The notes under the pieces were generated by a model that did not search any database, had not been told where the DNA came from, and saw nothing but the letters and a program-made list of their open reading frames with translations. Below are positions 33,335 to 64,000 of a DNA stretch of 64,000 nucleotides, one piece after another. The DNA is from Candidatus Micrarchaeota archaeon (lineage in GTDB: Archaea > Micrarchaeota > Micrarchaeia > Burarchaeales > JACRGF01), in the NCBI GenBank assembly GCA_016212395.1, contig JACRGF010000062.1, forward strand, positions 5,315 through 69,314. Reading direction: 5' to 3'. A program made the translations under genes and the position numbers. Each line of letters begins with the position of its first letter. Positions within the stretch are counted from its first letter, which is position 1.

Positions 33335-33466
33335 GCTATAGCAAACCACGAAAGTAATGCGACAAAAGTCCAATAACTCCGTCTCGTGGTTTGCTTTGAG
33401 TCGACTGCTCAACAACGCGAGGCGTTGTTGAAGTTGCAAACCGCATTACTTATGCGGTTTACAGTA
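33335..33466. repeat. Copy 1 of a ~130-nt three-hairpin repeat element; overlaps the aCPSF1 start codon
   Basis: gcaaaccacga...tcgtggtttgc (11 bp), caacaacgc-gag-gcgttgttg (9 bp), aaaccgcat-tactt-atgcggttt. Near-identical to 46168-46363 apart from a 64-nt insert in the latter. Confidence 0.85.
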
Positions 33467-36400
33467 AAAGAGGTTACAGAGGTTTTAAAGTTGGCTAACA
33501 ACGACATTAATGAAATACAAAAAAAACTCGAAGAAGTCCTGCCCCCAGCATGCGAACTAAGCAAAGTAGAGTTTGAAGGCCCGGACGTTGCAATCTACCT
33601 GAAAAACATCACTGCATTCTACTCAGACGAAAACCTCATAAGAAAAATAGCGAGCAGCCTCAGAAAACGCGTGCTCGTGCGCGCAGACGGAAGCACGCTC
33701 GTGCCGCAGGAAAAGGCGAGAAAGGAAGTGGAAGCGCTAATTCCAGTGGAAGCAGGAGTGCAAAACATCCAGTTCATGGAAGACTTCTGCGAAGTCGCCA
33801 TTGAATCCCTCAAGCCAGGGCTCGTGATTGGAAAGCAGGGAAGCACGCTCAAAAACATTATTCTCAAAACAGGCTGGAGCCCGAAAATACTGAGGACTCC
33901 GACGATGCCATCTGAAACAATCAAAGGAATAAGAGGAAGCCTCTACAAAGAGAGCGAAAACAGGAAAAAATTCCTCAACGCGCTGGGAAAAAAGATTTCA
34001 ACAGCCTCAAGCAAAAGCGATTGGGTGAAAGTAACAGCACTCGGAGGATTCCGCGAAGTCGGGAGAAGCTGCCTCCTCGTGCAAACTCCGAACGACAAAA
34101 TCCTCATAGACTGCGGAGTAAACCCTGAAACGAACGAGGGAACGCGCGCATTCCCGTACTTGACTGCAATGAACATTCCGCTCGACGAACTCGACGCAGT
34201 AATAGTAACCCACGCGCACTTGGACCATTGCCTTGAACCGGACACGCTCGTTGCAATGGCTGACGGCACTTCGAAACCAATTGACGAAGTTGTTGAAGGA
34301 GACGTGCTCGCGAGCGTGGACTTGAAAACCGGGCGCATGGCAGAAGGCAAATGCACTGGCAAGATAAGAACGCGCGCGCACGAGTCGATTGTGGAAATAA
34401 GAACGGAGAACGAAACTCTCCGCGCTTCGCCGAACCACCGCTTTTTCGTAGTTGAAGGCATGCAATTCAAGGAAATCGAGGCGGACAGCCTTAAGCAAGG
34501 AGACGTGGTTGCTGTTCCATGCATCGAACACGCGAGCTTGCCGGCAGCACGACTTCTTGAAAAGCCGAATTACGAAGAGATTGTGGAAATTCCATTTGAA
34601 TTAAAAAAAGCCATTGGCAGTTTCAGATCAGAAAGAGGGTTATCCTCACAGCAAATGTCGACGTTGATAAACAGGTCTGGAAATTACGTACAACAGCTGG
34701 AAACAATGCATGACCACGCAAACACAACAACGCTGAAGCAACTTGCGGAAATAACGGGCGTTGACAAAACAATGGTGAAAGAAACGATTTTCCCTGTAGA
34801 ACTCAACCCAGAGCTCGCCCAAATCGCAGGGTACGTGACAGGAGACGGCCACGCTTCAAGCGATTATTCAGTGCGAGCCACTGACAAAAACGTTGAATGC
34901 CTGGAAGAATACAAAAACGCAGTAATGCACGTGTTCAGCCACAAGGCAGTTATACGCCATCACCCAGACCGCACTAAAAACGCCCACGTGCTTGAAGTGA
35001 ATAATGCAGGCATAAAGCGGTTCCTGGAACTGAACTTTGAAGGCATTTTCGCGCCAAGCAACGAAAAGAGAGTGCCGAGAAAAATATTATCAGCAGAAAA
35101 AGCAGTTATAGCAGCCTACTTGAGAGGGCTTGCAGACGCAGAGGGAAGCGTTACCACCCACATCAAAATCGCGTCGTCAAGCAACAAACTCTTAGAACAA
35201 GCGCAAACGCTTTTCAGAATGCTTGGAATAACCGCAACAATTGCAGACAACGTCGTAAAAATAGAAGCAAAGGCAAGCATGAAACGCTATGCTGAACTCG
35301 TCGGCTTTTCGCATCCTTTGAAGGCAGCCAAGCTGGCTGAAATGACGCGCAGCCAAACAGCAGGAGAAGAAAGAGAAATCACGCCGATAAACGCCGAAGA
35401 CGCGCGCAGCATGCTCACTGAATGCGGATTCATAAGCAGAGCGCGCAGGACAGGCGGAAGCATGAAATCACTGCCTCCTGCAATCCACGAACTCTGCTAT
35501 TACGGAAAACACGCGACAAGAAAAACCGCAATGCAACTCGCACAAACGCTTGAATCCAAGGCGAAAACAGCCGAAAGCGCCCGCAAGCAAGCAAGCCTTA
35601 AAGAAAAAAGGCGTGCGGCAGGGCTTACAATAGCAGAAGTGTGCGAGAGTGCAAGATGCACGCGAGTTCAAGCATGGTACAGGGAAAAAGAAAACCTGAA
35701 AGACAAACTTTGGGAAAAACTGAACGCCTTTCTCGACTCTGCACTCGAAAAAAAAGCAGCCAAATGCAAGGAAACAGCTGAAAAAATCAAGCGCCTGCTC
35801 GCCATGCCAATCAAGTGGCACGCCATAAAAAAAATCGAAAAAAAACAAAACGACTGTGACTATCTCGTCGACATTGAAGTCGAGCCACACCATAATTTCA
35901 TCGCAAACGGGCTCATGGTTCACAACAGCGGCTTCATTCCATACTTGTACGCCTACGGTTACGACGGGCCAGTCTACTGCACTGCGCCAACGCGCGACTT
36001 GATGGCATTGCTTCAATTCGATTATATTGAAGTAGTAAGCAAGAGCGGAGGCAAAGCGCCTTACAACGAAAAACACGTGCGCAAAATGCTGAACAGGTGC
36101 GTAGTCCGCGAGTACGAGGAAGTGACGGACATCACTCCGGAAACAAAACTCACGCTTCACAACGCAGGCCACATTCTCGGAAGCTCGATGGTGCACCTGC
36201 ACATAAGCGAAGGCCTCCACAACCTCGTAATAAGCGGAGACATAAAATACGGGTACACGCAACTATTCGAGCCTGCGAACACGAAATTCCCGAGAATAGA
36301 AACTTTATTCATGGAAAGCACTTACGGAGGCAGGGAAGACATAATGCCACAGCGCCATGAGACAGACTCGCGCCTCGCAGCAGCAATAATGCAAACGCTT

Positions 36401-37087
36401 GCAAACAAAGGCAAAGTGCTCATCCCAGTATTCTCAGTAGGAAGAAGCCAGGAAATAATGCTCGTGCTCGAAGAATTCGCCTCAAAACACCCTGACTTTA
36501 ATTATCCAATTTACTCAGACGGAATGATTCTAGAAGCAAGCGCAATCCACACTGCTTACCCTGAATACTTGAAGCACAACGTCCAACGCAGAGTGCTCAG
36601 CAACAACTCGCCATTCGAAAGCAAAATCTTCGAAGCAGTAAAGAAAAACAGGAAAGACATTGTAGAAGGCGACCCGTGCGTCATCATCGCACCGTCAGGC
36701 ATGATGAGCGGAGGCCCAAGCATAGAATACTTCAAAATGATGGCGGAAAACCCAAACAACCTCCTCGTATTCGTAGGGTACCAATCAGTGCTCTCAATGG
36801 GAAGAAAACTCCAGCGCGGATTAAAAGAAGTCCCAATCATGGGAGAGGACGGAAGAATAAACACGCTCAAAATCAACATGAAAATAGAAACAGTAGACGG
36901 CTTTTCCGGGCACAGCGACAGAGCGCAACTCATCAGCTTCATGAAACACATACGCCCCACGCCGGAAAGAATATTCACAGGCCACGGAGAAGAAACAAAA
37001 TGCGAAGAACTCGCACGCGTAATAAACAGGATAACACACCTCGAAACACGCGCGCCAATGAACCTTGACTCCATAAGGCTGAAATAA
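33452..37087 (+). CDS. aCPSF1 (KH-domain beta-CASP metallo-beta-lactamase RNase, FttA-type) interrupted by an intein
   Basis: N-terminal KH region ([25 protein letters not shown]). HAHLDH split from [26 protein letters not shown] by the insert. C-terminal beta-CASP (MESTYGG, FSGHSD, VFTGHGE). Confidence 0.9.
   Translation: [1211 protein letters not shown]
34229..35926 (+). mobile_element. 566-aa intein with a LAGLIDADG homing-endonuclease domain
   Basis: Starts with Cys ([19 protein letters not shown]). Block B ASPNH. LAGLIDADG motifs [10 protein letters not shown] and [11 protein letters not shown]. Ends [20 protein letters not shown]. In frame: 1698 nt. Confidence 0.85.
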
Positions 37088-52230: not shown

Positions 52231-52294
52231 TGTTTACAGAATGTAAACAAAACGTTTATAAAACATAAACAGCATGTTTACAGCATGCAAACAC
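52231..52294. promoter_or_regulatory. Three operator-like inverted repeats spaced ~22 nt apart upstream of and overlapping the MNT start
   Basis: tgtttaca-gaa-tgtaaaca (52231-52249). gtttat-aaaac-ataaac (52254-52270). tgtttaca-gca-tgcaaaca (52276-52294). Confidence 0.55.
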
Positions 52295-52818
52295 TTGTAT
52301 CGAACAGGAAAAGAAAAAAATTGCTGGAATACTTGCTTGCGAATGCCGGGGAAAAAATTTTAGTCAGGCGAGTTGCAAGCAAGCTTGGGCTTAATGCAGG
52401 GTTCGTGTCTGTTTTTGTAAGCAAGCTAAAGCGCAAAGGGATTGTTAAAGGCGGAACTGTAAACTTGGGTTCTGCCCAAGCAAGACTGTGGAAAATTGTT
52501 TTCAATATCAACGCAGTGGAAAAGATTGCTGGAGAAATTATGCGCAGTAGCAGCGCTCTCGGAGTTGGAGTCTACGGGAGCTGGGTGAAAGGAACTAACA
52601 CTGAAAAAAGCGACTTGGACTTGTGGGTGAAAGTGAAAAAGCTTCCCGGCGCGCTTGAAGCTGCAAGGCTGCGGGCGCAAGTGAGAAAAAAACTCGGAGT
52701 TGAACCAAGCATATTGTTCTTGACAGGAGAGAAAATCACGCAGATGAAGAAAGACAATCCTCCAATGTATTTTTCGCTTGTGCACTCGTTCGTGTTGAGA
52801 GGTGAAGGCGTTGATTGA
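52285..52818 (+). CDS. wHTH + minimal nucleotidyltransferase (MNT) protein
   Basis: N-terminal LLEYLLANAGEKILVRRVASKLGLNAGFVSVFVSKLKRKGIV. NTase motif GVGVYGSWVKGTNTEKSDLDLWV. Confidence 0.75.
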   Translation: MQTLVSNRKRKKLLEYLLANAGEKILVRRVASKLGLNAGFVSVFVSKLKRKGIVKGGTVNLGSAQARLWKIVFNINAVEKIAGEIMRSSSALGVGVYGSWVKGTNTEKSDLDLWVKVKKLPGALEAARLRAQVRKKLGVEPSILFLTGEKITQMKKDNPPMYFSLVHSFVLRGEGVD

Positions 52819-53233
52819 TTTAAATGAATGTGTGGAAAAAGGGCTTATCAGGAAGACGGTCGCATCAAAAGAACAGGCGTTGGCTGGATTGAAGAAAGCA
52901 AGAGTGCTGTTAAAAGAGGCGGAAGAGGATTTTGAGGACGAACGGTTTAATTCAACAGTAGTCGTAGCATACTTGGCAATATTGAATGCTGCGCGGGCAG
53001 TATTGTTCAGGGATGGCTACCGCGAGAGAAGCCACGCGTGCGTCGCACGCTACCTTGAAGCAAAATACGCTGGAAAAATTTCGCAGGATTGCATAGACTT
53101 GCTGGATTACTTTAGGGAAACGAGGCATGAAGTGCAGTATGAATCAGATTATTTCGCTGAAGCAGAAGCAGCAAAGCAGATAGCAGAATTCGCGGGCAAG
53201 TTCATAAAACTAGTTGAAGAGTTGCTGAAGTGA
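52802..53233 (+). CDS. HEPN-domain protein (partner of the MNT)
   Basis: 143-aa helical protein overlapping the MNT gene by 17 nt. YRERSHACVARYL region. Confidence 0.6.
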   Translation: MKALIDLNECVEKGLIRKTVASKEQALAGLKKARVLLKEAEEDFEDERFNSTVVVAYLAILNAARAVLFRDGYRERSHACVARYLEAKYAGKISQDCIDLLDYFRETRHEVQYESDYFAEAEAAKQIAEFAGKFIKLVEELLK

Positions 53234-53377: not shown

Positions 53378-56300
53378 TTATACAAACGGCGCGCACAATC
53401 CTGTTGTTGCAGCGCACGTTACGTAATCGCCGATGGAGCGCACGTATATTCTCGATGAAATGATGAATTCTTCATCCAGCAAGTCTAAACGGGAATAGTC
53501 GCAGTAGAACGTCTTGCATTCTCCTTTTGATTCTTCATCGTTAGTTGAGGCGCATTCAAACGTATCAGCGTGATCAGGGCCGACTGCGTGGCTGCAGTCG
53601 AGGCTCGTGTAAACTTGCATCACGTCGATGGAATCGTCTATTTCTCCTGGCTCGAAGCCTTCCAGTCTTATTTCCACTTTTATTTCCTCATTTTTCCTTC
53701 CCGAACCGACTTGCACAATGCACTTTCTTCCTGAAACTCCGGAGTTTATAATGAAACTGTCCACTGCTGGAGTTGGCGAATCGAACCCTGGAGGCGGGTC
53801 AGCAGTCGCAGTGACTATGTAATTGCCCGCGCCCCACTCGCTGATGTCCCAAGAAATTGAATACTCGCCGTCAGCGTTAGTAGTCGTAGTGTGGTCTGTC
53901 GCTCCAGGGTGCACTCCACCGTCAGGCCCGACTATTGAAACTGTAACGAGAGCGCCTTCAATCGGAATTTCAGTTCCGTCCTCGTCAACGTAGTAAACTC
54001 TCCCTTGCGTGACAGCGTCTTCCTCTGTTCCTTCAGGGTAAGAGTGAGAGGCTGGAAGCACTTCAAGCGTGATGACAGTAGCAGTTCCAACGTGAGTGCG
54101 CACCTCGACAGGCACAGGCGGGCACACTAACTCGCCTGCGCTTGCTGAAACAGTTCCGGTTCCAGCAGTTGTTGCAGTGAAAGTAGACCTCGGGCCAGCA
54201 CTCGAGAATGTTCCCAACGCACTGCTCCAAGCGAGTGACGCCGGGCAACTGACTGCAATGCCCGCATCAGTCAAGCAGAAAGCACGGTAATGAAGAGAAT
54301 CGCCGACGTAAAGCACTGCATCGCCTGGAAGAATCGCGGTGCACGCGCCTGCGACAGGCTCGCCACCAATGCTTTCCACGAGCGTTGAACACTCTAACGC
54401 TTCACCAGAGTCAAGCACTCCGCTTGCAGTAACCGTTTCCCTTCCAACCCCGCTGGGGTTGAATTCTGTTGAAGGCGCGTTCGCAGCAGGAGTTGGGTTG
54501 AATGTGAACGTTCCAGCGAGCGAACCGCTGTCCCAATCGAACTGAGGACAGTCAATATCTTCTCCGCTTGAAGAAATGCATTCTGCTGAAAGCGAAATCG
54601 CTCCATTGTCAACGTCAACTGAAGACGGCTCTGCGCGCAATAGGCACACGCTTTCGCCAGGCGCTTCAAGCAACACTGGCAGAACGCATCCAGCGAACGG
54701 CTCAGAATCCGAACGCTCGACGTTAATCAAGCCTGCAGTTCCAACGCTTCCGTCAGCAGTCATTGAACTCGAAGGGCGAGCTGGAAGCGTTGCAGCACTC
54801 GTAGTTGCAGGGTTCATTCCACTGCTCGCAATGAAGTCGCTCACGCTCCACGACAACGCGGGACAGCTTACTTCCAAATCAACAGCGTTCAAACATTCAA
54901 CTGAAAATAATCTCGTGTCGCCCAAGCGCATCATCGCAGTATCTCCCACTCCGACGAAACGGCACGACGCTGCAACACCCGCGTCCGCAACTGTTACGGG
55001 AGTGCTGCAAGTTGCGAAACTCGCGCTCGAAGCAACAACCGTTCCATCACCAGCCGTCTCGCCGGTGAACGTGCTTCCAGCAAAACTTCCAACATCAGAA
55101 GAGTAAACGAAATCAGCAGGGCACGCTACACTCGCGCCGTTCTCAATGCAACTGATGCTCGCAGTTGCAGTCCCTCCGACAAGAACGCTTGGTGGAGTGA
55201 TTGAAACACTGCACTCGCGCACTGGAACGTTGCTTGAAGTTATCGGCGCAGAGCATTCGATTGGCACTCCACCCAGAGTAACTCGCGCGCCAACCCGCCC
55301 GCTTCCGATCGCGCTTGCAGTAAAGAGAGCACGCGAATTCGTTGTTCCTGAAAGACTGCCTGCAACACCCTCGCTGAACCACGCGAGCGAAGGCGGGCAA
55401 AAGCCAGTAGCAGAACCATACCCGCACAACACGCGGTATTCAGTTGGATCGTTGAGGACTACGTTGCTCGGGCCAGTAACTTCACACACTGGCCTGTCGC
55501 GCACGTTCAAAATCGCGCTGCACGGAAAACCACTGCCAAGCCCGAAAAGCATTGCACTCATTCCAGCAGCAGTTGGAGTCAACGAAACAGACGGACTGCG
55601 CGCTGAAGGCGAAGGGTTAGGAGCAATCGTTGCTGGAATTGCTGAAGTCCAAGTTAAAGAAGGGCAGTCAACTGAACTACCTCCAGTAGTGCAAGCAGCA
55701 GTGAAAGAAATAGAATCGCCAACAAAACCATTTACACTCGACGGAGTGAGCACGCACGAGTTGACAGGAACAGGGTTAACACGCACAGCGAGAACGCCAC
55801 AAGTTATAGTCTCACTCGGAGCAGTTGTCGGAACAACTGCTTGCGCGCTTAAAGTAAACAAACCATCCCGCGGAGGAATGAACGTCACGCTCGCGCCACT
55901 AGCACCGCTAAGAGAACCAGCAGCAGCTGGGGATACTGCCCACGAGCCTGAAAGCGCATTGCACGGAACAACCGCCCCGTCAACGCGCCTGCACACTACT
56001 GAATAAAAAGTGGGAGAACGGGCAATTATTGGAGAAGGCCCTTCGACAGCACACGTGTGGCGAGAGATTGTTGCAGTGCGAGTGCACGAAAAACTTCCGC
56101 TGTTCGCAGTAACAGTTCCACTGCCTGAAGCAGTAGCGACAAACGATGAAGACGGGCTTGCTCCAGCAGCAGTGCTCGCAGGGCTCATTGCGCTCGCCAC
56201 TGTTGAAACAGTCCACGACAACGCAGGGCACGAAACTGAAGCGCCCCTGCCAGTGCAACTCGCAGCAAAAGAAACAGTGTCACCAACGTGCAACGCACCT

Positions 56301-58771
56301 GAAGTAGTTTGAGACAACGTGCAAGCATCAGGAGCAGGAACAACTGCAGAAACCGCTTCACTGCACGTCGTGGCAATTCCGCTTAATGTTACACCAGCTT
56401 GAATAGTTCCACTGCTTACAGCAGAAGCGCGGAAATCAACTTGCGGGTCATGCTGGTTCTCGAAAGCTCCTGAAAGCCCAGCGCTCTTCGTCCACGAAAC
56501 AGCACCGCAACTCGCAGTGCTTCCATCACTAAGCCTGCACGCTGCCTGGAACGTTGACAGCACTCCAACTGCCAACGAACCTGCAGGAGAATGGGAAACA
56601 ATGCATGAAGGAAGATTTTGAACAGTCGCAGCAGCAGTGCACGAAAACGGAGATGCAAGAGTCGAACAACCGTTCGTAGTCTGCGTTGCAGTAACAGTAA
56701 TTGTAGCAGGAGTTGCTGGAGCAGTAAGCGTGCTTGAAGGAGACGCAGTAGTAGAACACGCAGTGCCCATTGTTCCTCCGTTGTTCGCACTCCACTGCAA
56801 CCTGCTGCACGTGACAGCAAAACCTAGAGAGTCAGCGCAAGTCGCAGTGAACGCCTGCGTTCCGCCAACGTAAAGAGTCGGGCTCGAAGGAGAAAGTGAA
56901 CAGCTTGCTGCAGGCCCGACAGTGTGCCTCACGGTAATAACAGCAGTGCACGGGGCAGTGAACGGAACTCCAGCATTGTTTGAATTCACTGAAAGAGTTA
57001 CAGAAGCGTCAGCTGAAGGCGCAGTGTAAGTTGAAGAAGCGCTTGCGCCAGCACTTGTTGGAGTAGGAGAAATTGTTCCAGAGCCTGAAGCAAGGCTTAA
57101 AGTCCAAGCCATCGTAGGACAATTTCTCGTAACACCTGCAGAATCCATGCACGTTGCAGTGAACGGTTGCGTTGCGCCATACTCGAGAGTGGATGTTGCT
57201 GGAGAAAGCACGCAACTCGTTGCAAGTGGAACAGGCGGTGCAGTAACTGTAATTGAAGCAGTGCACGGCGAAGCGAAAGGCTGGCTCGCGTCAGTAGAAG
57301 TGACGGACAACGTCGGGCTTACAGTCGAGCTCGGCGCAGTGTAAGTTGAACTCGGGCTTGCTCCAGCACTCGTCGGAGTGGGAGACATTGTTCCACGAGT
57401 TCCAGTACCGCTCAAACTCCAAGACAACGTCGGGCAGTTGACAGAATTCCCATCAGCATCCTCGCACGACGCAGTAAACGTTTGAGTGCCAGCGTAATAG
57501 AGTGGCGCAGAAGTTGGAGTAAGCGTGCAACTCGCAGCAGGCTCTGGCGGAGGCGCAGTGACAGTGATAGTGCACAATGGAACAGCGAGAGTCTGCGTCG
57601 GGTTAGTGGCAGTGCACGGGTTCTGCACGTCGTCATCATAAGAAACGTCAGCGTAAACATCATGAGTGCCAATAGAGCCTGAAGGAGCAGAGACAGTCGC
57701 TCCAGCTGAAGTAGTGTAAGTATGCGAACCACCACCCGGAACGTCGGCAGTAGTACTGTGCGATGCAGAAAAAGACAATGCTGCAGGAGCACGCCCACCA
57801 ATCGCCACTGGAACATCACGCAAAACAATGCCCGAAACATCAGCAGGAATTTCCCCTGAATTGCTCAAGCGAATAGAGTCGGAAAAAGAAACAGTAGAAC
57901 CAGCAACTATAGTTGAAGGAGTGCAACTGTGAGTGCGCGAAGAAAGCAAAGCGCCGTCACTCGCAGTAATCGCGTTGACAGTCATTGAATTGCCGGTAAG
58001 CGTGTACGCATCAACGTCGCCAGCTGTTTTTCGAGAGTAAACCCAGTAAACGTCCATATCGTCAGTCCTGTCCAAGTACGCGCGAGTGTACAACGCGCAA
58101 TCGTCTATCCTCAAATCAGAGTGAATAGTGTGCGCTCCAGCAGTTAAAGCAGTAGAGTAGGAAGGCGAAGACAATGGCAGGGCATACGTCGCGTCTGCAG
58201 CCCCGCCATCAACGTAAACTTTCGCGCTCCCGTAACACAGCACGTCAGCCTTGAAAGTCCCGCGCTCGCTCTGCTCTCCAGCACCTATCGGGTCCCACAT
58301 GTAATAACCGTAAATATCATGTTCTGTTGCCAAACTTGAAGAAGAACGGTCGTTCGCCACTAAGTTGCTGTAATCAGAAGAAGAAATCCACGTTACGAGC
58401 GGAGCTCCGGCAGTATAAGCACGGTCAGTGTCCCTGCACCTGTCATTCGAAAAATAACATGAAACTTCGCCAGTGCGCGAGTTCCAGCCCCAGTAATTAA
58501 CAGTATTTGAAGAAAGCGGGACGACAGAAATATCTTCGCCAGCACAAACAAAATCGTTGTTGTTCTTCGAGTCCCCGTCCTGCAAAACGCGAGTGTCTAC
58601 CGCAAAACGAACGTTGTCGATAGTAGCATACAACGCATCAGTCCGCGCAGGCCTGAACGTTACAACGCTCGTATAAGACGCCTGGCCTGCAGTCGCGAAA
58701 ACAATAGAAGAAAAAAAAACAAGCAAAAAAACAAACAATGCGAACACACGCGAACCCAACACGATCACCAA
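53378..58771 (-). CDS. 1797-aa secreted surface protein with ~12 tandem Cys-paired Ig-like (Big_2-like) repeats
   Basis: Signal-like N-terminus FALFVFLLVFFSSIVFATA. Repeats of ~95 aa such as SCTLTPTSAPLYYAGTQTFTASCEDADGNSVNCPTLSWSL...SPTPTSAGASPSSTYTAPS...CTASITVTAPP. A carboxypeptidase-regulatory-like segment (VTVSIVGPDGG...NADGEYSISW) lies near the C-terminus. Confidence 0.75.
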   Translation of the reverse strand: MVIVLGSRVFALFVFLLVFFSSIVFATAGQASYTSVVTFRPARTDALYATIDNVRFAVDTRVLQDGDSKNNNDFVCAGEDISVVPLSSNTVNYWGWNSRTGEVSCYFSNDRCRDTDRAYTAGAPLVTWISSSDYSNLVANDRSSSSLATEHDIYGYYMWDPIGAGEQSERGTFKADVLCYGSAKVYVDGGAADATYALPLSSPSYSTALTAGAHTIHSDLRIDDCALYTRAYLDRTDDMDVYWVYSRKTAGDVDAYTLTGNSMTVNAITASDGALLSSRTHSCTPSTIVAGSTVSFSDSIRLSNSGEIPADVSGIVLRDVPVAIGGRAPAALSFSASHSTTADVPGGGSHTYTTSAGATVSAPSGSIGTHDVYADVSYDDDVQNPCTATNPTQTLAVPLCTITVTAPPPEPAASCTLTPTSAPLYYAGTQTFTASCEDADGNSVNCPTLSWSLSGTGTRGTMSPTPTSAGASPSSTYTAPSSTVSPTLSVTSTDASQPFASPCTASITVTAPPVPLATSCVLSPATSTLEYGATQPFTATCMDSAGVTRNCPTMAWTLSLASGSGTISPTPTSAGASASSTYTAPSADASVTLSVNSNNAGVPFTAPCTAVITVRHTVGPAASCSLSPSSPTLYVGGTQAFTATCADSLGFAVTCSRLQWSANNGGTMGTACSTTASPSSTLTAPATPATITVTATQTTNGCSTLASPFSCTAAATVQNLPSCIVSHSPAGSLAVGVLSTFQAACRLSDGSTASCGAVSWTKSAGLSGAFENQHDPQVDFRASAVSSGTIQAGVTLSGIATTCSEAVSAVVPAPDACTLSQTTSGALHVGDTVSFAASCTGRGASVSCPALSWTVSTVASAMSPASTAAGASPSSSFVATASGSGTVTANSGSFSCTRTATISRHTCAVEGPSPIIARSPTFYSVVCRRVDGAVVPCNALSGSWAVSPAAAGSLSGASGASVTFIPPRDGLFTLSAQAVVPTTAPSETITCGVLAVRVNPVPVNSCVLTPSSVNGFVGDSISFTAACTTGGSSVDCPSLTWTSAIPATIAPNPSPSARSPSVSLTPTAAGMSAMLFGLGSGFPCSAILNVRDRPVCEVTGPSNVVLNDPTEYRVLCGYGSATGFCPPSLAWFSEGVAGSLSGTTNSRALFTASAIGSGRVGARVTLGGVPIECSAPITSSNVPVRECSVSITPPSVLVGGTATASISCIENGASVACPADFVYSSDVGSFAGSTFTGETAGDGTVVASSASFATCSTPVTVADAGVAASCRFVGVGDTAMMRLGDTRLFSVECLNAVDLEVSCPALSWSVSDFIASSGMNPATTSAATLPARPSSSMTADGSVGTAGLINVERSDSEPFAGCVLPVLLEAPGESVCLLRAEPSSVDVDNGAISLSAECISSSGEDIDCPQFDWDSGSLAGTFTFNPTPAANAPSTEFNPSGVGRETVTASGVLDSGEALECSTLVESIGGEPVAGACTAILPGDAVLYVGDSLHYRAFCLTDAGIAVSCPASLAWSSALGTFSSAGPRSTFTATTAGTGTVSASAGELVCPPVPVEVRTHVGTATVITLEVLPASHSYPEGTEEDAVTQGRVYYVDEDGTEIPIEGALVTVSIVGPDGGVHPGATDHTTTTNADGEYSISWDISEWGAGNYIVTATADPPPGFDSPTPAVDSFIINSGVSGRKCIVQVGSGRKNEEIKVEIRLEGFEPGEIDDSIDVMQVYTSLDCSHAVGPDHADTFECASTNDEESKGECKTFYCDYSRLDLLDEEFIISSRIYVRSIGDYVTCAATTGLCAPFV

Positions 58772-58871: not shown

Positions 58872-61358
58872 TCAAAACTCATAACGAACGCCTAACATGA
58901 ATGCCGCAGCGTCGTTATCCGTTCCTTCAACTCCTGCTTTAACGCGCAGGCCTTCCAAGCCTTTAATTCCAGTTTCCGAAATTAAGTTATAACTCTGCGT
59001 GCCGTTGCCAGTTACGCTTACAGTAGCACACAAATGCGGAGTTTGAAACACTAAAACATCGGTGCCAACAGCAGCGCAAACGCTTACTGCACCGTACGGG
59101 TCAACACTGCCTGGAATGCTGGCAGTTCTTGGGACTATTGTAGCCCCGCCTTCGCCAGTAACTTCAATTGAAACAGGGCCAACGGTAAAATGAAGCAAAG
59201 ACGAGCTTACACCAATTTGGTGAGCGCTAATTCCATCAACTTGCCCAGAGTAACTGACTGATGAAACCGTCCTCAGCAAGTCAACAAAAAAATCCGTTAA
59301 ATATGCGTCATGCCCTTTGACCAAGTCTTCAATAGCGCGGTTCCAGCTCGTCCTGTCCGCACGCACTACGCGAGCGCCGAACGTCCAAGTTTCTCCTGCC
59401 TTTCCAAAGCGCAAGCTGATTTGAGGCGCTTGCCTTTCGCCAGTCATCTTGTCCAAGAGAAGAGTAACCTCTCCTTCAGCACCGAGAGTTTCATCCCGCT
59501 CTAAAGTAGGGCGCGATGTTTCAGAGTCTCTACCGAACAAATCAAAATTATAATCAGTGGTAGTGCCACTGCCGCGCAAACGCGCTTCCTTCAAACGCAC
59601 GACTGCAGTAACCCCGCCGTCCAGCCAAGTCGCTCCAGCTTCTGCGTACGTTGGGAGAAACACGCGCATCTGCAACTCTTTTTTTGAAGAGTGGAAAGAA
59701 ACGCCAGCTGCATCAACAAAAGCAGTGCCTTTGTGCGAGCGGAGTATTCCAATCAAGCCGCGCTGAGCTTCAATATCATTAGGGGATACTTGAAGCCTTG
59801 CAACATAACGCTTGAAATCCCCAAGTTCTGGCTGTGTAAAACCAACTTGTGAAGATAACAAATAGCTACTCGGAATCATTGCAAGCGCGTTGGCTGCACC
59901 CTGAACAGTTCCACTCTGGTATAAACGGTTGAATGCCCGCCCCCTCGCTTCATCAAAACCTAGAGAGTTAAGAATGCTTTCATTAAGGCCACCACCAGTA
60001 ATAACTTGAGTCGTGACAACAGGCGGTACATCAAAAACAAGAGGAGGCATTGAAGCAGCCGGAGTAGGCAAGACAGGCAAGCGCTCGACAGTCAACTCGC
60101 TTCTGGCATCGAACATTTCACGCATTCTTTCAAGCAACTCCGGAACAAACGGCTTCTGCACGACTATAGAGTATAATTCGTCAAACAAACCACGGTCGCG
60201 CGCAACGCGCGCTACTTGACGCTCGTCGAAAGAGCCAAGAGCACCACGGCCAGAGTCAGTTGCACGCACACGATCATAATCTGCCTGCAATTCGTCATTC
60301 CATGCTTCGAGATTGACAAGCCATGCAGAGTATACTGACAGCGCGCGACTTGATTCAGCGGGGAATACTATTGGCACATACCATTGCATGAAATCCATTA
60401 ATCGAAGGCACAGCGAGCCGAACTCTTGCACTGCCCCTATTTCAGACAAGTGCCTGTCGAAACCATGGATTTGCTGTTCCAAAACAGCGAGTGAAGAATT
60501 CAGGTCTTGCTTTAAAACAGTTGAAGTATTTACAAGCTGCGTTGATAACGCTTTTAACTTCGCTTGATTTTCAGAAGTGAGTTTGGCAACTGCATCTTCA
60601 TCGAACGTTGACAGGATAGTTCGAGCAACGAAAAAAGAGTGAACACGCTCCATTAAAGGAGTTCCACTTGAAAGCGCGGAATCAAGCAGGGAAGAAACTA
60701 CTTTGAAAAACGCTTCACCGGAATAAAGGCCAGCTGAAGCACGCACTTCATCGAAAACTTTCTTCAAATCAGCCAGCTGCTGGGACTGCACTGGGTTCAG
60801 CATGCTGTTTTCATTAAGAAAATTAAGCAAGTAAAGATGAGCAGATGCTTCTGAAAGCCGAGCTAAATCTTCTGAAGCAAGAGTTTCACCGGCACGCGTT
60901 TTTGCAAACAACTGGTCGAGCAACGACGCGAACGCTTCGAAATGTTTTTGAGGGTCATTCGTTTTGCGCCATTCCTCTAAAGTCTTTCGCGCTTCAGCAT
61001 CAAGCACAGTAAGAGCTGGAACAAGCTTGGCAAGGCGAGTAGGTTTTTTCTTTCCACGCCTGCCTGAAGCTGCCGGAACAGCTGCTGCTTTCTCAACTCT
61101 ATAAGCGGCTCTAAAAGCAAACAATGCATCGCCTCCGTTGGAATAAGTTCTATGAATGCCAGTATTTAAATGATTTGGATTTTCACTTCCGTCAGTATCA
61201 GCACGCGCAGGCAACGCAAATGCGACAACCAACGGCGCGACTAAAGGCAAAAAAGCTAAAGAGCGAAAACTAGGGCGAAGAACATTCCAGCATTTCCTAG
61301 CAAAACCAAGCGTTGCTGTAGAAGCACGCTGGCTCTCCCCACACTTTACAGAACTCAT
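58872..61358 (-). CDS. 828-aa secreted protein: helical N-terminal half, beta-rich C-terminal third ending ...FMLGVRYEF
   Basis: Signal-like LAFLPLVAPLVVAFALPARA. The C-terminal ~300 aa show short alternating hydrophobic strands separated by G/N/D turns. Confidence 0.65.
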   Translation of the reverse strand: MSSVKCGESQRASTATLGFARKCWNVLRPSFRSLAFLPLVAPLVVAFALPARADTDGSENPNHLNTGIHRTYSNGGDALFAFRAAYRVEKAAAVPAASGRRGKKKPTRLAKLVPALTVLDAEARKTLEEWRKTNDPQKHFEAFASLLDQLFAKTRAGETLASEDLARLSEASAHLYLLNFLNENSMLNPVQSQQLADLKKVFDEVRASAGLYSGEAFFKVVSSLLDSALSSGTPLMERVHSFFVARTILSTFDEDAVAKLTSENQAKLKALSTQLVNTSTVLKQDLNSSLAVLEQQIHGFDRHLSEIGAVQEFGSLCLRLMDFMQWYVPIVFPAESSRALSVYSAWLVNLEAWNDELQADYDRVRATDSGRGALGSFDERQVARVARDRGLFDELYSIVVQKPFVPELLERMREMFDARSELTVERLPVLPTPAASMPPLVFDVPPVVTTQVITGGGLNESILNSLGFDEARGRAFNRLYQSGTVQGAANALAMIPSSYLLSSQVGFTQPELGDFKRYVARLQVSPNDIEAQRGLIGILRSHKGTAFVDAAGVSFHSSKKELQMRVFLPTYAEAGATWLDGGVTAVVRLKEARLRGSGTTTDYNFDLFGRDSETSRPTLERDETLGAEGEVTLLLDKMTGERQAPQISLRFGKAGETWTFGARVVRADRTSWNRAIEDLVKGHDAYLTDFFVDLLRTVSSVSYSGQVDGISAHQIGVSSSLLHFTVGPVSIEVTGEGGATIVPRTASIPGSVDPYGAVSVCAAVGTDVLVFQTPHLCATVSVTGNGTQSYNLISETGIKGLEGLRVKAGVEGTDNDAAAFMLGVRYEF

Positions 61359-61367
61359 AAACGCGAA

Positions 61368-63926
61368 TTAATATTTTGTTGGATCTAGCACAGTAAACTT
61401 AGCTTTGTTAAGCAACGCGAACGCTTCCCAAGAAACCGCGCGCACAAATTCAATAGGATTATCCCTGAAAGAAATCAACTCGTTTATGCCTGACGAAATT
61501 TCCACGTTACTGCCATCTTCATTGCGTTTAGGCAGTTTTCTCGAGGATGCAATTGAAGCAGTACCCATCAAATCCTTCAACTGGCCAAGCAATCCAAGCA
61601 AACGCTCGCACTCTACACAAGTCTGGAGAGTGACAGTCACAGCAGTGGCAGGATTGATTTCGTCAATCGCATCCTGAAGTTTAGAAACATAATCCAGCAA
61701 AGGCACACCAGTCGCAATGGAGATAGCAGCAGATTTGGTTCGAATCGCTGCACTAAGCGCGTTATACCTGCTTGGGAACGTGTCAACATCACGCCCAATT
61801 TGAAAAAATTGAGCACCATGCACGTTAAGAGTAACATTCCCTTGAGTCTCACCAAGCGCAGGTTTCGCTGCGTCTCCCACTTTTGCTTCAACATCGGCTT
61901 TCGCCTTCTCTTCTGCCTGCTTTGACGCTTCAGCGTCAGTTACTTTCACTTTCAAACCGTTGAGAGGAGTAGAGGATCCTTCGCCTTCGGATTTATCTCC
62001 TTTTTTCAGTGTTCTTGCTTCAAAGACTCGACGGCCTGTTTCTCCTCCTCGAATTAGCTTGCCTTGTGGTTCTCCGAAGTGCGGCACGTTGCTAGGTATG
62101 CCCGCGTCAGAAGGCACTCCAACGAGACCACCTATTTCCGTAACTAGTTCGCTTGCGTTGCCAGTGCCAAGACGGACGATCACGCCAGATATCTTTCTCC
62201 TCGTGTCGTTTACTTGTCGTTTCAAGGCGTCAACAGGAGCATTGCCAACTGTTGCTCTTCTGCTTTCTAAAATTTCGTCTGCTTTAGCTAATGCAATAAG
62301 ACCTCTGCGCAGTGCCTCGCGGTAAATACCTTGTTGTTTAGGAGTCAGTAGTGCTGCAGGCGCAACTGCTGGCGCAGGCGCTGGAGCAATTTTAGGCGGT
62401 TTTTCTTCGAGCCCAAGCGCTTTCTGCTTGAGTTTTTCAGCGTCTTCCCTTAGTTTTTTTGCTTCTGCGCGCAAGCCTTCGAGTATTTCAGTGTTGAGCT
62501 GCATGCCTGGCTCGAGGTGGCGCACGAGCCACCCGTGAAGTTCTTCAGCATCGCCAGCCAAGCGAGCGCGCTCAGCGTCAAGCGCGTCGTGTTCAGCTTT
62601 GTTAACCTTGTCGTTCTTTGCTTCAAGAATCCTGCGCACGTTTTCAAGAATCGCTTGAGTTCCAACAACGTCTGCAAGCAATGAATCAACGCTTGAAATC
62701 AACTGGCGTTCGTCTGGAGACGATTCGCGAACAGTTTCAACGAATGCCGGCCTTCGCACGCCAGTTGGAGTAAATAAAACAGTGCCTGCAGACCTTGAAT
62801 CTTCAGCAAACTTGTCGGATTCTGAAAAGCAAATCGCTAGCAATGCTACAGCAGCAGCAACGCCGATGGCAATGCCTCTTGCTGCCTTGCCTCCAATAGG
62901 CTTCCTGGCAACGCGTTCTGCAAGCTCTAACGCCCTCCTGCCAGCAGAAACAGCAGCTTCTCCGGAAACAGCACGCGCAGCTTCACGCGCTTGGCTACGG
63001 GCAGCAAACATTGCGCCAGCGCGTTCTACAGCAGCAGCAACGCGATCCCTGCCGCTTGAAACAGCTTCTCGCGCGCGAGTAAAATCAGCAGCAGTCTTTT
63101 CCGCATCGCTAATAACGAAACGACTTACAGCACGCGCACCAGTTGCAACTTTAGAGCCAGCAGCACGAGCTTGCCCTGCAGCAGCAGTGCGCGCGCTAGC
63201 CAAGAACGCTCTAAAACGAGAAGGGCTCTGCGTGACTCTCAATGCTTCCAGCTTGCTTGCAAGTTCAACTTCCCTGACAGCAACAACTTCAGCCCTGCGG
63301 GCAACAGGCGCAGCCTCTCCTGCAACAGCACGAGGAGCGGAAAAGTCTCGAACAACACCTTCAGCAGCTCGCTCAACTTCCCGGGCAACAGGCGCAGCCT
63401 CTCCTGCAACAGCACGAGGAGCGGAAAAGTCTCGGGCAATGCTTTCAGCAGCAGCACGCTCAGCGCTTTCAGCAGCTCGCGCGATCCTCTCTGAAGCGAT
63501 TGCACTCACGCCTCTTGAGGCAGACGCGCTCCGCTCGAGGTTAACGTACCTCGCAACAGCATCGTGGTATTTGCCGGAAGGAATTTTATCAAGGTCAGCA
63601 ACGCCTGTTCCAAGAAATTTTTCAAACTCTCGCTCTGCCTGCCGGCGACCCATGCCGCTGAACCTTGAAATGTCTGCTTGGAACGCATGCGTTAAGCTTT
63701 CCCTCAGCCTTTGAACAGCAGCCAAGCGCAGTTCTTCAGTAGCAGCAGTTTCCAATGCTGCAGCAGCACGCCCGACAGCTTGCTGGGCTGGGGCAGTAGC
63801 CGGCTTTGCAACTGGCTCTGCAGCTCGAATAGGCTTGGCGCGCATGCCTGCGCGGGCTTCAACTGCAGGTTCTGGAGCAGGAATGGGAGTACGCGGTTTG
63901 TGAACGGGTTTTTGTGTTGGAGCCAT
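61368..63926 (-). CDS. 852-aa single-pass membrane protein: Ala/Arg-rich N-terminal half, coiled-coil and beta-rich C-terminal half
   Basis: TM GIAIGVAAAVALLAICF at about residue 370. 28-aa tandem repeat RDFSAPRAVAGEAAPVA. Pro/Ala linker KIAPAPAPAVAPAALL. Confidence 0.65.
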   Translation of the reverse strand: MAPTQKPVHKPRTPIPAPEPAVEARAGMRAKPIRAAEPVAKPATAPAQQAVGRAAAALETAATEELRLAAVQRLRESLTHAFQADISRFSGMGRRQAEREFEKFLGTGVADLDKIPSGKYHDAVARYVNLERSASASRGVSAIASERIARAAESAERAAAESIARDFSAPRAVAGEAAPVAREVERAAEGVVRDFSAPRAVAGEAAPVARRAEVVAVREVELASKLEALRVTQSPSRFRAFLASARTAAAGQARAAGSKVATGARAVSRFVISDAEKTAADFTRAREAVSSGRDRVAAAVERAGAMFAARSQAREAARAVSGEAAVSAGRRALELAERVARKPIGGKAARGIAIGVAAAVALLAICFSESDKFAEDSRSAGTVLFTPTGVRRPAFVETVRESSPDERQLISSVDSLLADVVGTQAILENVRRILEAKNDKVNKAEHDALDAERARLAGDAEELHGWLVRHLEPGMQLNTEILEGLRAEAKKLREDAEKLKQKALGLEEKPPKIAPAPAPAVAPAALLTPKQQGIYREALRRGLIALAKADEILESRRATVGNAPVDALKRQVNDTRRKISGVIVRLGTGNASELVTEIGGLVGVPSDAGIPSNVPHFGEPQGKLIRGGETGRRVFEARTLKKGDKSEGEGSSTPLNGLKVKVTDAEASKQAEEKAKADVEAKVGDAAKPALGETQGNVTLNVHGAQFFQIGRDVDTFPSRYNALSAAIRTKSAAISIATGVPLLDYVSKLQDAIDEINPATAVTVTLQTCVECERLLGLLGQLKDLMGTASIASSRKLPKRNEDGSNVEISSGINELISFRDNPIEFVRAVSWEAFALLNKAKFTVLDPTKY
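63299..63434 (-). repeat. Two perfect 52-nt direct repeats with an 84-nt period inside the 852-aa gene
   Basis: gggcaacaggcgcagcctctcctgcaacagcacgaggagcggaaaagtctcg occurs at 63299-63350 and 63383-63434. Confidence 0.9.
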
Positions 63927-64000
63927 GAGTTATCACTCTCTTTAAACGGTCAAATACGGAAGAGTTTATTGCCGAAGTAGTATTTATATGTTTGTTGTAA

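Follow-up and report, generated by a model that had tools for sequence, protein, structure and literature searches.

The locus and the 828-residue protein

We analysed a window, namely a whole stretch of 64,000 nucleotides, on contig C57 of a Micrarchaeia (DPANN) genome (G000) of 1.37 Mb (67 contigs, 89% complete; relatives of this genome have 0.7-1.8 Mb). The subject of the analysis is a complete gene on the minus strand (58872..61358 according to the list of open reading frames (ORFs), with the stop codon at 58872-58874), which encodes a protein of 828 amino acids (aa) whose C-terminus resembles that of bacterial outer-membrane proteins (OMPs). The gene stands second among three that run in the same direction (852, 828, and 1797 aa), with gaps of 9 and 100 nt. 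The original prediction had placed the protein in an archaeal setting and read it as either a horizontally acquired bacterial-type barrel or a convergent beta structure. The setting is archaeal indeed, with FttA/aCPSF1 (carrying an intein), geranylgeranyl reductase, and class I CysRS encoded in the window. The same protein, identical in sequence, was called on a contig of an independent Logan assembly (run SRR12113407). An assembly chimera at the contig end was rejected because this independent contig links the 828-aa gene with archaeal genes.

The C-terminus (...AAAFMLGVRYEF / ...DNDAAAFMLGVRYEF / ...GTDNDAAAFMLGVRYEF) closes with the ten residues AFMLGVRYEF. As described earlier, F, Y, V, L, and F occupy positions 1, 3, 5, 7, and 9 counted from the end, which gives the protein the aromatic last residue and the hydrophobic residues at -3, -5, -7, and -9 that make up a bacterial-type beta-signal. 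The end coordinate given in the original prediction, 59770, is out of frame by a single base; the codon of residue 530 starts at 59771.

At the other end of the protein, residues 1-54 (61197..61358; all parts of the protein lie on the minus strand) form a leader that, judging by hydropathy, is probably a Sec-type signal peptide or an N-terminal anchor. A basic n-region (R21, K22, R28, and R32) is followed by a 19-residue hydrophobic core, SLAFLPLVAPLVVAFALPA (residues 33-51), and then by ARA|DT. This core is the best Kyte-Doolittle 19-residue window (KD19) of the protein, at 2.14, and the sole such peak in the 828 residues (residues 30-52); no C-terminal hydrophobic segment was found. We took the leader as real because the ATG directly follows the upstream stop codon (9 nt past it), V88 is encoded by GTT, which is no start codon, and no other possible start occurs before a GTG at V118.

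The leader is followed by an alpha-helical part, residues ~109-541 (59736..61034), with ~20 helices of 5-42 residues. Its hydrophobic periodicity is of the alpha type (fraction beta>alpha 0.34), and in a full-length AlphaFold2 model from the single sequence it is the only part with a predicted local distance difference test (pLDDT) score of 50-80. The C-terminal region consists of two beta-rich lobes. Lobe 1, residues 556-668 (59355..59693), contains ~7 short amphipathic strands and has a period-2 hydrophobic moment of z=2.3 against shuffled sequences. Lobe 2, residues 698-828 (58875..59267), has z=2.5 and ends in a terminal hairpin (804-828, LRVKAGVEGT-DNDAA-AFMLGVRYEF). Between the lobes lies an amphipathic alpha-helix of 29 residues (669-697; 59268..59354), which is helical in both AlphaFold2 runs and has an alpha-moment of 1.51 versus a beta-moment of 0.90. 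An internal duplication was not detected when the two lobes were compared with each other. The earlier description of the last ~300 aa as a succession of strands thus holds for their beta-type amphipathicity but not for their continuity, as the region is broken by the 29-residue helix and residues 530-555 are part of the helical region.

The fold of the beta-rich region could not be modelled with confidence. pLDDT was ~25 for residues 542-828 in the full-length single-sequence run, and a run on residues 544-828 with a two-sequence alignment reached a mean of 29.4, which is unusable for fold assignment; a Foldseek search with the full-length model returned only noise. The hydrophobic-moment periodicity shows that the region is beta-rich and amphipathic, and has no power to separate a transmembrane barrel from a soluble sandwich.

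A single orthologue and no bacterial relatives

The sole orthologue of the 828-aa protein is a protein of 897/899 aa from a metagenome-assembled genome deposited as 'Candidatus Micrarchaeia archaeon' (G001). The two share 25% identity over residues 459-654 (59397..59984), a core made up of a helical subdomain and the first beta lobe, with E=9e-10 in pairwise BLASTP and E=3.1e-7 in a genome search; lobe 1 aligns with its counterpart at E=0.002. The orthologue has no leader: only 5 open codons precede its ATG, its best KD19 window reaches 1.31, and it has no hydrophobic segment.

Beyond this pair, the searches were empty. A word-indexed search of 5.8 billion proteins returned only the 828-aa protein itself or one orthologue of the same family. 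Exhaustive phmmer among 1.84 billion representatives found the query alone and no bacterial homologue, and a profile run over 400 genomes of the class yielded nothing but the protein or its one orthologue. No paralogue was found in its own genome. As the searches returned only the query or one orthologue, an alignment deep enough for structure prediction could not be built. Family databases were equally uninformative: Pfam gave only sub-threshold noise (gpW) for the whole protein and, at E<=10, only DUF4402 (E=0.14) for residues 530-828, and NCBIfam and PHROGs gave nothing relevant. No chain in the PDB was matched by sequence or by profile, even at E<=10.

The same holds for the families with which a bacterial-type barrel would be expected to show kinship, since no similarity to OMP, autotransporter, or TpsB families was detected in Pfam or the PDB even at E<=10. 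A bacterial origin fares no better by placement. The protein has relatives in Micrarchaeia only, at a chromosomal locus that is syntenic between two Micrarchaeia genomes; as the searches gave no bacterial relative, nothing points to horizontal acquisition. We also considered an origin from a virus or mobile element and rejected it, because PHROGs gave no match and synteny with a chromosomal beta-CASP gene is kept in two genomes.

The OMP-like ending and the tests of an outer-membrane barrel

Of 1527 crude ORFs in the host genome with a length of 150 aa or more, 5 carry the C-terminal pattern [FYW]-x-h-x-h-x-h-x-h, against ~1.7 expected from composition; by itself the terminal motif is near chance frequency and not more than chance. 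Furthermore, its most conspicuous residue is not conserved. The last hairpins of the two orthologues align (KAGVEGT-DNDAA-AFMLGVRY(EF) versus TAGLEFT-PKKGPK-IGLKVFY(TPKKR)), but the orthologue continues into TPKKR and ends ...IGLKVFYTPKKR (...KVFYTPKKR), a basic tail with no terminal aromatic residue. The last amphipathic strand is therefore conserved, whereas the terminal Phe is not. A positional analogue in another Micrarchaeia genome (G264, described below) ends ...SYMTKTKG. Among the controls, soluble fimbrial subunits of E. coli also end in strands of alternating hydrophobic and aromatic residues (...FHINYY, ...FNFIYQ, and ...YTITYQ). Because soluble pilins end in this way, an OMP-like ending is not specific to membrane barrels.

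Composition was compared with two sets of E. coli K-12 controls. The beta part of the 828-aa protein has 7.7% aromatic residues and 2.6% Tyr, within the ranges of soluble beta proteins (4.2-9.4% and 1.1-4.2%; pilins, chaperones, DegP, PqiB, and POTRA domains), while OMP barrels have 10.5-16.5% and 5.4-8.5% (seven sequences from six proteins: OmpF, OmpA barrel, FhuA, BamA barrel, and two ushers). Runs of at least three VILMFC residues make up 5.3% of the beta region versus 0-2.9% in the OMP barrels. Both the composition and the hydrophobic-run comparisons are weak indicators, and the aromatic contents of the orthologue (11.4%) and of the G264 analogue (12.3%) are within the OMP range. The dyad-strand density of 2.9 per 100 aa is inside the range of true barrels, but the counter gives the same values for E. 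coli OMP barrels and for soluble pilins and chaperones and was dropped as a discriminator.

We also looked for the machinery and the membrane that a bacterial OMP needs. No match to Omp85/BamA (PF01103) was found at E<=1 in the 1.37-Mb, 89%-complete host genome, while the same family scored above its cut-off in the control set of seven diderm bacteria. Two membranes were once proposed for Micrarchaeota, yet the outer layer of Ca. Micrarchaeum harzensis is a proteinaceous surface layer (S-layer) (10.1101/2021.04.28.441871), and cryo-tomography of Micrarchaeon ARM-1 revealed a cytoplasmic membrane and an S-layer (PMC11329633). The literature on cultivated Micrarchaeota, which belong to genera other than that of the host, thus describes an S-layer and not a lipid outer membrane. 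An unidentified 21-nm barrel-shaped complex lies under the ARM-1 S-layer (PMC11329633), and no published report of OMP-type barrels in Micrarchaeota was found.

According to these results, what survives of the original prediction is the beta-rich amphipathic tail and the OMP-like last strand, both of which are real, while the link to bacterial OMPs is left without support. Against a horizontally acquired bacterial-type barrel stand the lack of bacterial homologues and of an Omp85/BamA match and an orthologue that misses both the terminal Phe and the signal peptide. The data agree with the fallback of a convergent beta structure; the models of the region (pLDDT 25-29) do not distinguish a soluble sandwich from a closed barrel.

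The gene neighbourhood

The gene downstream of the 828-aa gene (53378..58771, minus strand; it starts 100 nt away in the ORF list) encodes a giant of 1797 aa. With a signal peptide, a conserved N-terminal domain (N-domain), ~12 Cys-containing immunoglobulin (Ig)-like repeats, and 65 Cys, this protein is predicted to be secreted. The upstream gene (61368..63926, minus strand) ends 9 nt before the 828-aa gene and encodes an Ala/Arg-rich protein of 852 aa with one hydrophobic segment, GIAIGVAAAVALLAICF; it has no family match and is not similar to the gene at the same place in G001.

The arrangement has counterparts elsewhere. In G001, a 922-aa secreted protein follows 6 nt after the orthologue, and its N-domain is homologous to that of the window giant (E=7e-15). 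The orthologue is preceded there by a 521-aa type I membrane protein (L009:8410-9975) with a signal peptide, sequon-rich beta-sandwich-like domains, and a C-terminal anchor, which resembles proteins of 587/592 aa beside the giants of two further genomes (G003 and G011). In G264, the homologue of the giant is a 930-aa CARDB-domain protein, and 12 nt upstream of it lies a 1286-aa orphan (L016:6821-13485 for the two), which makes a positional analogue of the 828-aa/1797-aa pair. This orphan has a long helical part followed by a beta-amphipathic tail of ~280 residues (z=2.5) and has no leader. Comparison of the 828-aa family with the orphan gave nothing in hhalign and two weak co-linear segments in BLASTP, a similarity that is not significant. 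The G264 orphan starts with MFLFQ and the G001 orthologue with MLVGQ, which are faintly similar. In G011 and G003, the giant is preceded by a type I membrane protein only.

The pairing of a large helical protein bearing a beta-rich tail with a giant secreted Ig/CARDB-type protein therefore recurs in two other Micrarchaeia genomes, and the pair adjoins a beta-CASP nuclease gene both in the host genome and in G001. As the N-domain of the giant recurs in surface proteins of G001, G264, G011, and G003 while the partners differ, the stable element is the giant secreted adhesin/S-layer-like protein, and its neighbouring partners change almost beyond recognition between genera.

Several further features of the locus were recorded. 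Five giants share a C-terminal C-x-x-[FY]-[VI]-COOH motif (LCAPFV, HCEGFI, ICPDYV, CSPYV, and CSPYI; window 53378-53400 on the minus strand, L009:12701-15469, L016:10693-13485, L017:5449-8775, and L018:5016-8339), which may be a shared sorting or attachment signal. The 1797-aa giant has 0 N-X-S/T sequons versus ~12 expected (50 Asn, 25.7% Ser+Thr; Poisson P~6e-6), despite an AglB/STT3 oligosaccharyltransferase encoded in the host genome (G000:C60:41591-42316); its G264 homologue has 12 sequons versus 11.9 expected. The guanine-cytosine (GC) content is 0.53-0.55 at window positions 54001-58000 and 62001-64000 versus 0.45-0.50 over most of the window, and these high-GC stretches coincide with the Ala/Gly/Ser/Thr-rich giant gene and the upstream gene. 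The giant gene and the beta-CASP gene, immediate neighbours in G001, are separated in the host genome by a HEPN/nucleotidyltransferase pair (window 52231-53233), a difference that suggests an insertion at this syntenic site. Further away, the FttA/aCPSF1 gene (33386-37087, plus strand) carries a large LAGLIDADG intein within the metallo-beta-lactamase domain (Pfam Intein_splicing and LAGLIDADG_3).

A putative envelope partner of the giant

Given the protein architecture and the gene neighbourhood, we favour, with modest confidence, an explanation in which the 828-aa protein is no bacterial-type OMP but belongs to the cell envelope, where it partners the giant surface protein, is restricted to its lineage, and evolves very fast. 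This explanation builds on the ORF, the module and its synteny, the periodicities, the lack of OMP homology, and the lack of a BamA match. Most likely, the protein serves as an exported, or N-terminally anchored, scaffold or partner of the giant. It would be delivered to the zone that separates the S-layer from the cytoplasmic membrane, where the helical part of ~430 residues may act as a spacer or stalk and the beta-rich part of ~270 residues, with its two lobes, may bind the giant adhesin/S-layer-like protein or co-assemble with it. The last amphipathic strand might then be an exposed edge strand available for beta-sheet pairing, comparable to the ends of soluble pilins. The likeness of ...LGVRYEF to a porin beta-signal would be a by-product of ending in an edge strand, and no BAM-like machinery (the beta-barrel assembly machinery of bacteria) would read it as a signal. 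As expected for an envelope module, type I membrane-anchored beta-sandwich proteins stand beside the giant in G001, G011, and G003.

Several observations weigh against this explanation. Neither the orthologue nor the G264 analogue has a signal peptide, so that export is not established across the family and the protein could be cytoplasmic. N-glycosylation sequons, with 4 observed versus 3.7 expected in the 828-aa protein, are neither enriched nor depleted. The beta-periodicity of the C-terminal region is as strong as that in the OmpA barrel, insertions of ~30 and ~24 residues, each about a hairpin in size, set the orthologue apart and would fit an up-and-down meander such as a barrel, and the pLDDT of 25-29 for residues 544-828 is compatible with a closed barrel as well. 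Moreover, the interaction with the giant, the expression, and the location of the 828-aa protein remain predictions from sequence.

Alternative explanations

The alternative that survives best, although we regard it as unlikely, is that the C-terminal ~270 residues form a self-inserting membrane barrel of 12-16 strands that is made without BAM. It might insert into the membrane of the cell itself, into an outer layer not yet recognised, or into the host membrane at a contact site, and it would anchor or pass the neighbouring giant in a manner analogous, not homologous, to autotransporters and two-partner secretion. The OMP-like last strand together with the Sec-type leader would suit such a barrel, as would the OmpA-like periodicity, the barrel-like dyad-strand density, the hairpin-sized indels, and the OMP-range aromatic content of the orthologue and the G264 analogue. 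The barrel-shaped complex beneath the ARM-1 S-layer (PMC11329633) points in the same direction. Nevertheless, no confident structural model is available for the region, and the dyad-strand metric is blind to the difference between a barrel and a soluble sandwich. The aromatic content and the hydrophobic runs of the 828-aa protein itself are of the soluble type, a 29-residue helix sits amid the beta region, and neither the terminal Phe nor the leader is conserved. Further, no outer lipid membrane was seen in cultivated relatives and no Omp85 match in the genome.

A second family in the same genome bears on this alternative. It is represented by a protein of 2144 aa encoded outside the window (contig C61:17028-23462, minus strand; hereafter the C61 family), which has a leader, ~1300 helical residues, and a Gly/Tyr/Trp-rich, beta-looking tail of ~700 residues ending ...HFDWTLNVRLQY. 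Its leader resembles that of the 828-aa protein (...LVKPSF... versus ...VLRPSF..., each followed by a hydrophobic core; motif [RK]PSF). Relatives of the tail occur in three genomes of another Micrarchaeia family (L023, L024, and L025) at 29-37% identity; the C61 family spans three genera, and a terminal aromatic residue is present in all four members (...NVRLQY, ...NVRGTF, ...LRALNY, and ...NVRGTF). The tail has no match in Pfam or the PDB, and the C61 and 828-aa families are not detectably related (hhalign probability 3%). Because the terminal aromatic residue is conserved there, the C61-type family is a better case than the 828-aa protein for BAM-independent barrels in Micrarchaeia. One may speculate, and we consider it doubtful, that the beta tail of the 828-aa protein is a self-inserting, BAM-independent barrel of archaeal origin and a small divergent member of a wider Micrarchaeia set defined by a leader, a long helical part, and an aromatic-ended barrel, of which the C61 family would be another. 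If this were true, such barrels could form the barrel-shaped complexes that cryo-tomography has shown in the envelope of Micrarchaeota, or could make contact with the membrane of the host.

Rather improbable, though ahead of that speculation, is a role as a cytoplasmic or non-Sec-exported helper of the giant, for example in its assembly or export, in which case the leader would be a lineage-specific addition or unused. This is what the orthologue, with its 5 open codons before the ATG and no hydrophobic segment, and the leaderless G264 analogue would suggest. In addition, the sequon density is like that of cytoplasmic proteins, and the 828-aa protein contains few Cys versus the 65 in the secreted giant. 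However, the leader is well formed, it stands right after the upstream stop, V118 is the earliest plausible alternative start, and an open stretch of 87 codons would be unlikely if it were non-coding. The [RK]PSF motif and hydrophobic core also recur in a second large beta-tailed protein of the genome.

Finally, a horizontally acquired bacterial OMP of the porin, autotransporter, or TpsB type with a BAM-recognised beta-signal is highly improbable and close to refuted: ...LGVRYEF does resemble enterobacterial porin ends such as ...VGIVYQF and parts of the module have a somewhat elevated GC content, but the protein matches no OMP family or PDB chain and no bacterial sequence among the 1.84 billion representatives, its relatives are confined to Micrarchaeia at a syntenic chromosomal locus, its genome gives no Omp85 match, and its beta-signal is not conserved in the orthologue.

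Comparison with known systems and implications

The 828-aa protein shares with BAM-dependent OMPs (OmpF/OmpC and OmpA) a leader, a C-terminal region of amphipathic strands, and a terminal Phe (LGVRYEF versus VGIVYQF in OmpF). It differs from them in lacking sequence and profile similarity and an Omp85/BamA match in its genome, in a terminal Phe that is not conserved in the orthologue, in an aromatic and Tyr content half of that of real barrels, in the helix inside the beta region and the 430-residue helical part before it, and in belonging to a lineage with an S-layer. Type Va autotransporters are similar in general layout, having a leader, a large N-terminal part, and a beta-rich C-terminal part of ~270 residues ending in Phe, and a large adhesin-type protein is present in the operon here. 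Unlike in these systems, however, there is no PF03797 match at E<=10, the N-terminal part is helical and not a beta-helix passenger, the helix lies within and not before the beta region, and the adhesin is encoded by a separate gene with its own signal peptide.

An organisational parallel for the proposed envelope partner is the slaA-slaB pair of Sulfolobales (canopy and stalk), in which a very large secreted protein is likewise paired with a smaller exported protein that is helical (coiled-coil-like) and beta-rich. Both pairs are fast-evolving with few detectable homologues, and co-transcription of the pair described here is read from the gene layout. Nevertheless, SlaB has a C-terminal transmembrane anchor and the 828-aa protein has none, the gene order is reversed, and there is no sequence similarity; in G001, a SlaB-like role is filled by the separate 521-aa type I membrane protein. 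Chaperone-usher pilins, which are soluble Ig-like beta-sandwiches, resemble the protein in the alternating hydrophobic and aromatic residues of their end strands (...FHINYY and ...FNFIYQ), which pair with a neighbouring subunit, and in their periodicity z-scores. They differ in showing no homology, in a size of ~160 aa, and in a conserved disulfide, and no chaperone or usher genes are present at the 828-aa locus. The G264 cassette has the same gene arrangement, an orphan with a helical N-terminal part and a beta-amphipathic C-terminal part, and a partner homologous to the window giant, but its orphan has no significant similarity to the 828-aa protein, and only the latter has a Sec-type leader and a terminal Phe.

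The 828-aa gene can thus be described as a new, lineage-restricted variant of a component of an archaeal surface-envelope module. If an archaeon did carry a bacterial OMP signal, this would be remarkable; the claim for the 828-aa protein depends on a motif of near-chance frequency that is not conserved. DPANN archaea live attached to host cells, and their envelope and host-contact proteins are almost entirely unknown. With its fast-diverging module of a giant Ig/CARDB adhesin-like protein and a large orphan partner, the 828-aa gene offers a concrete candidate for the DPANN host-contact interface.

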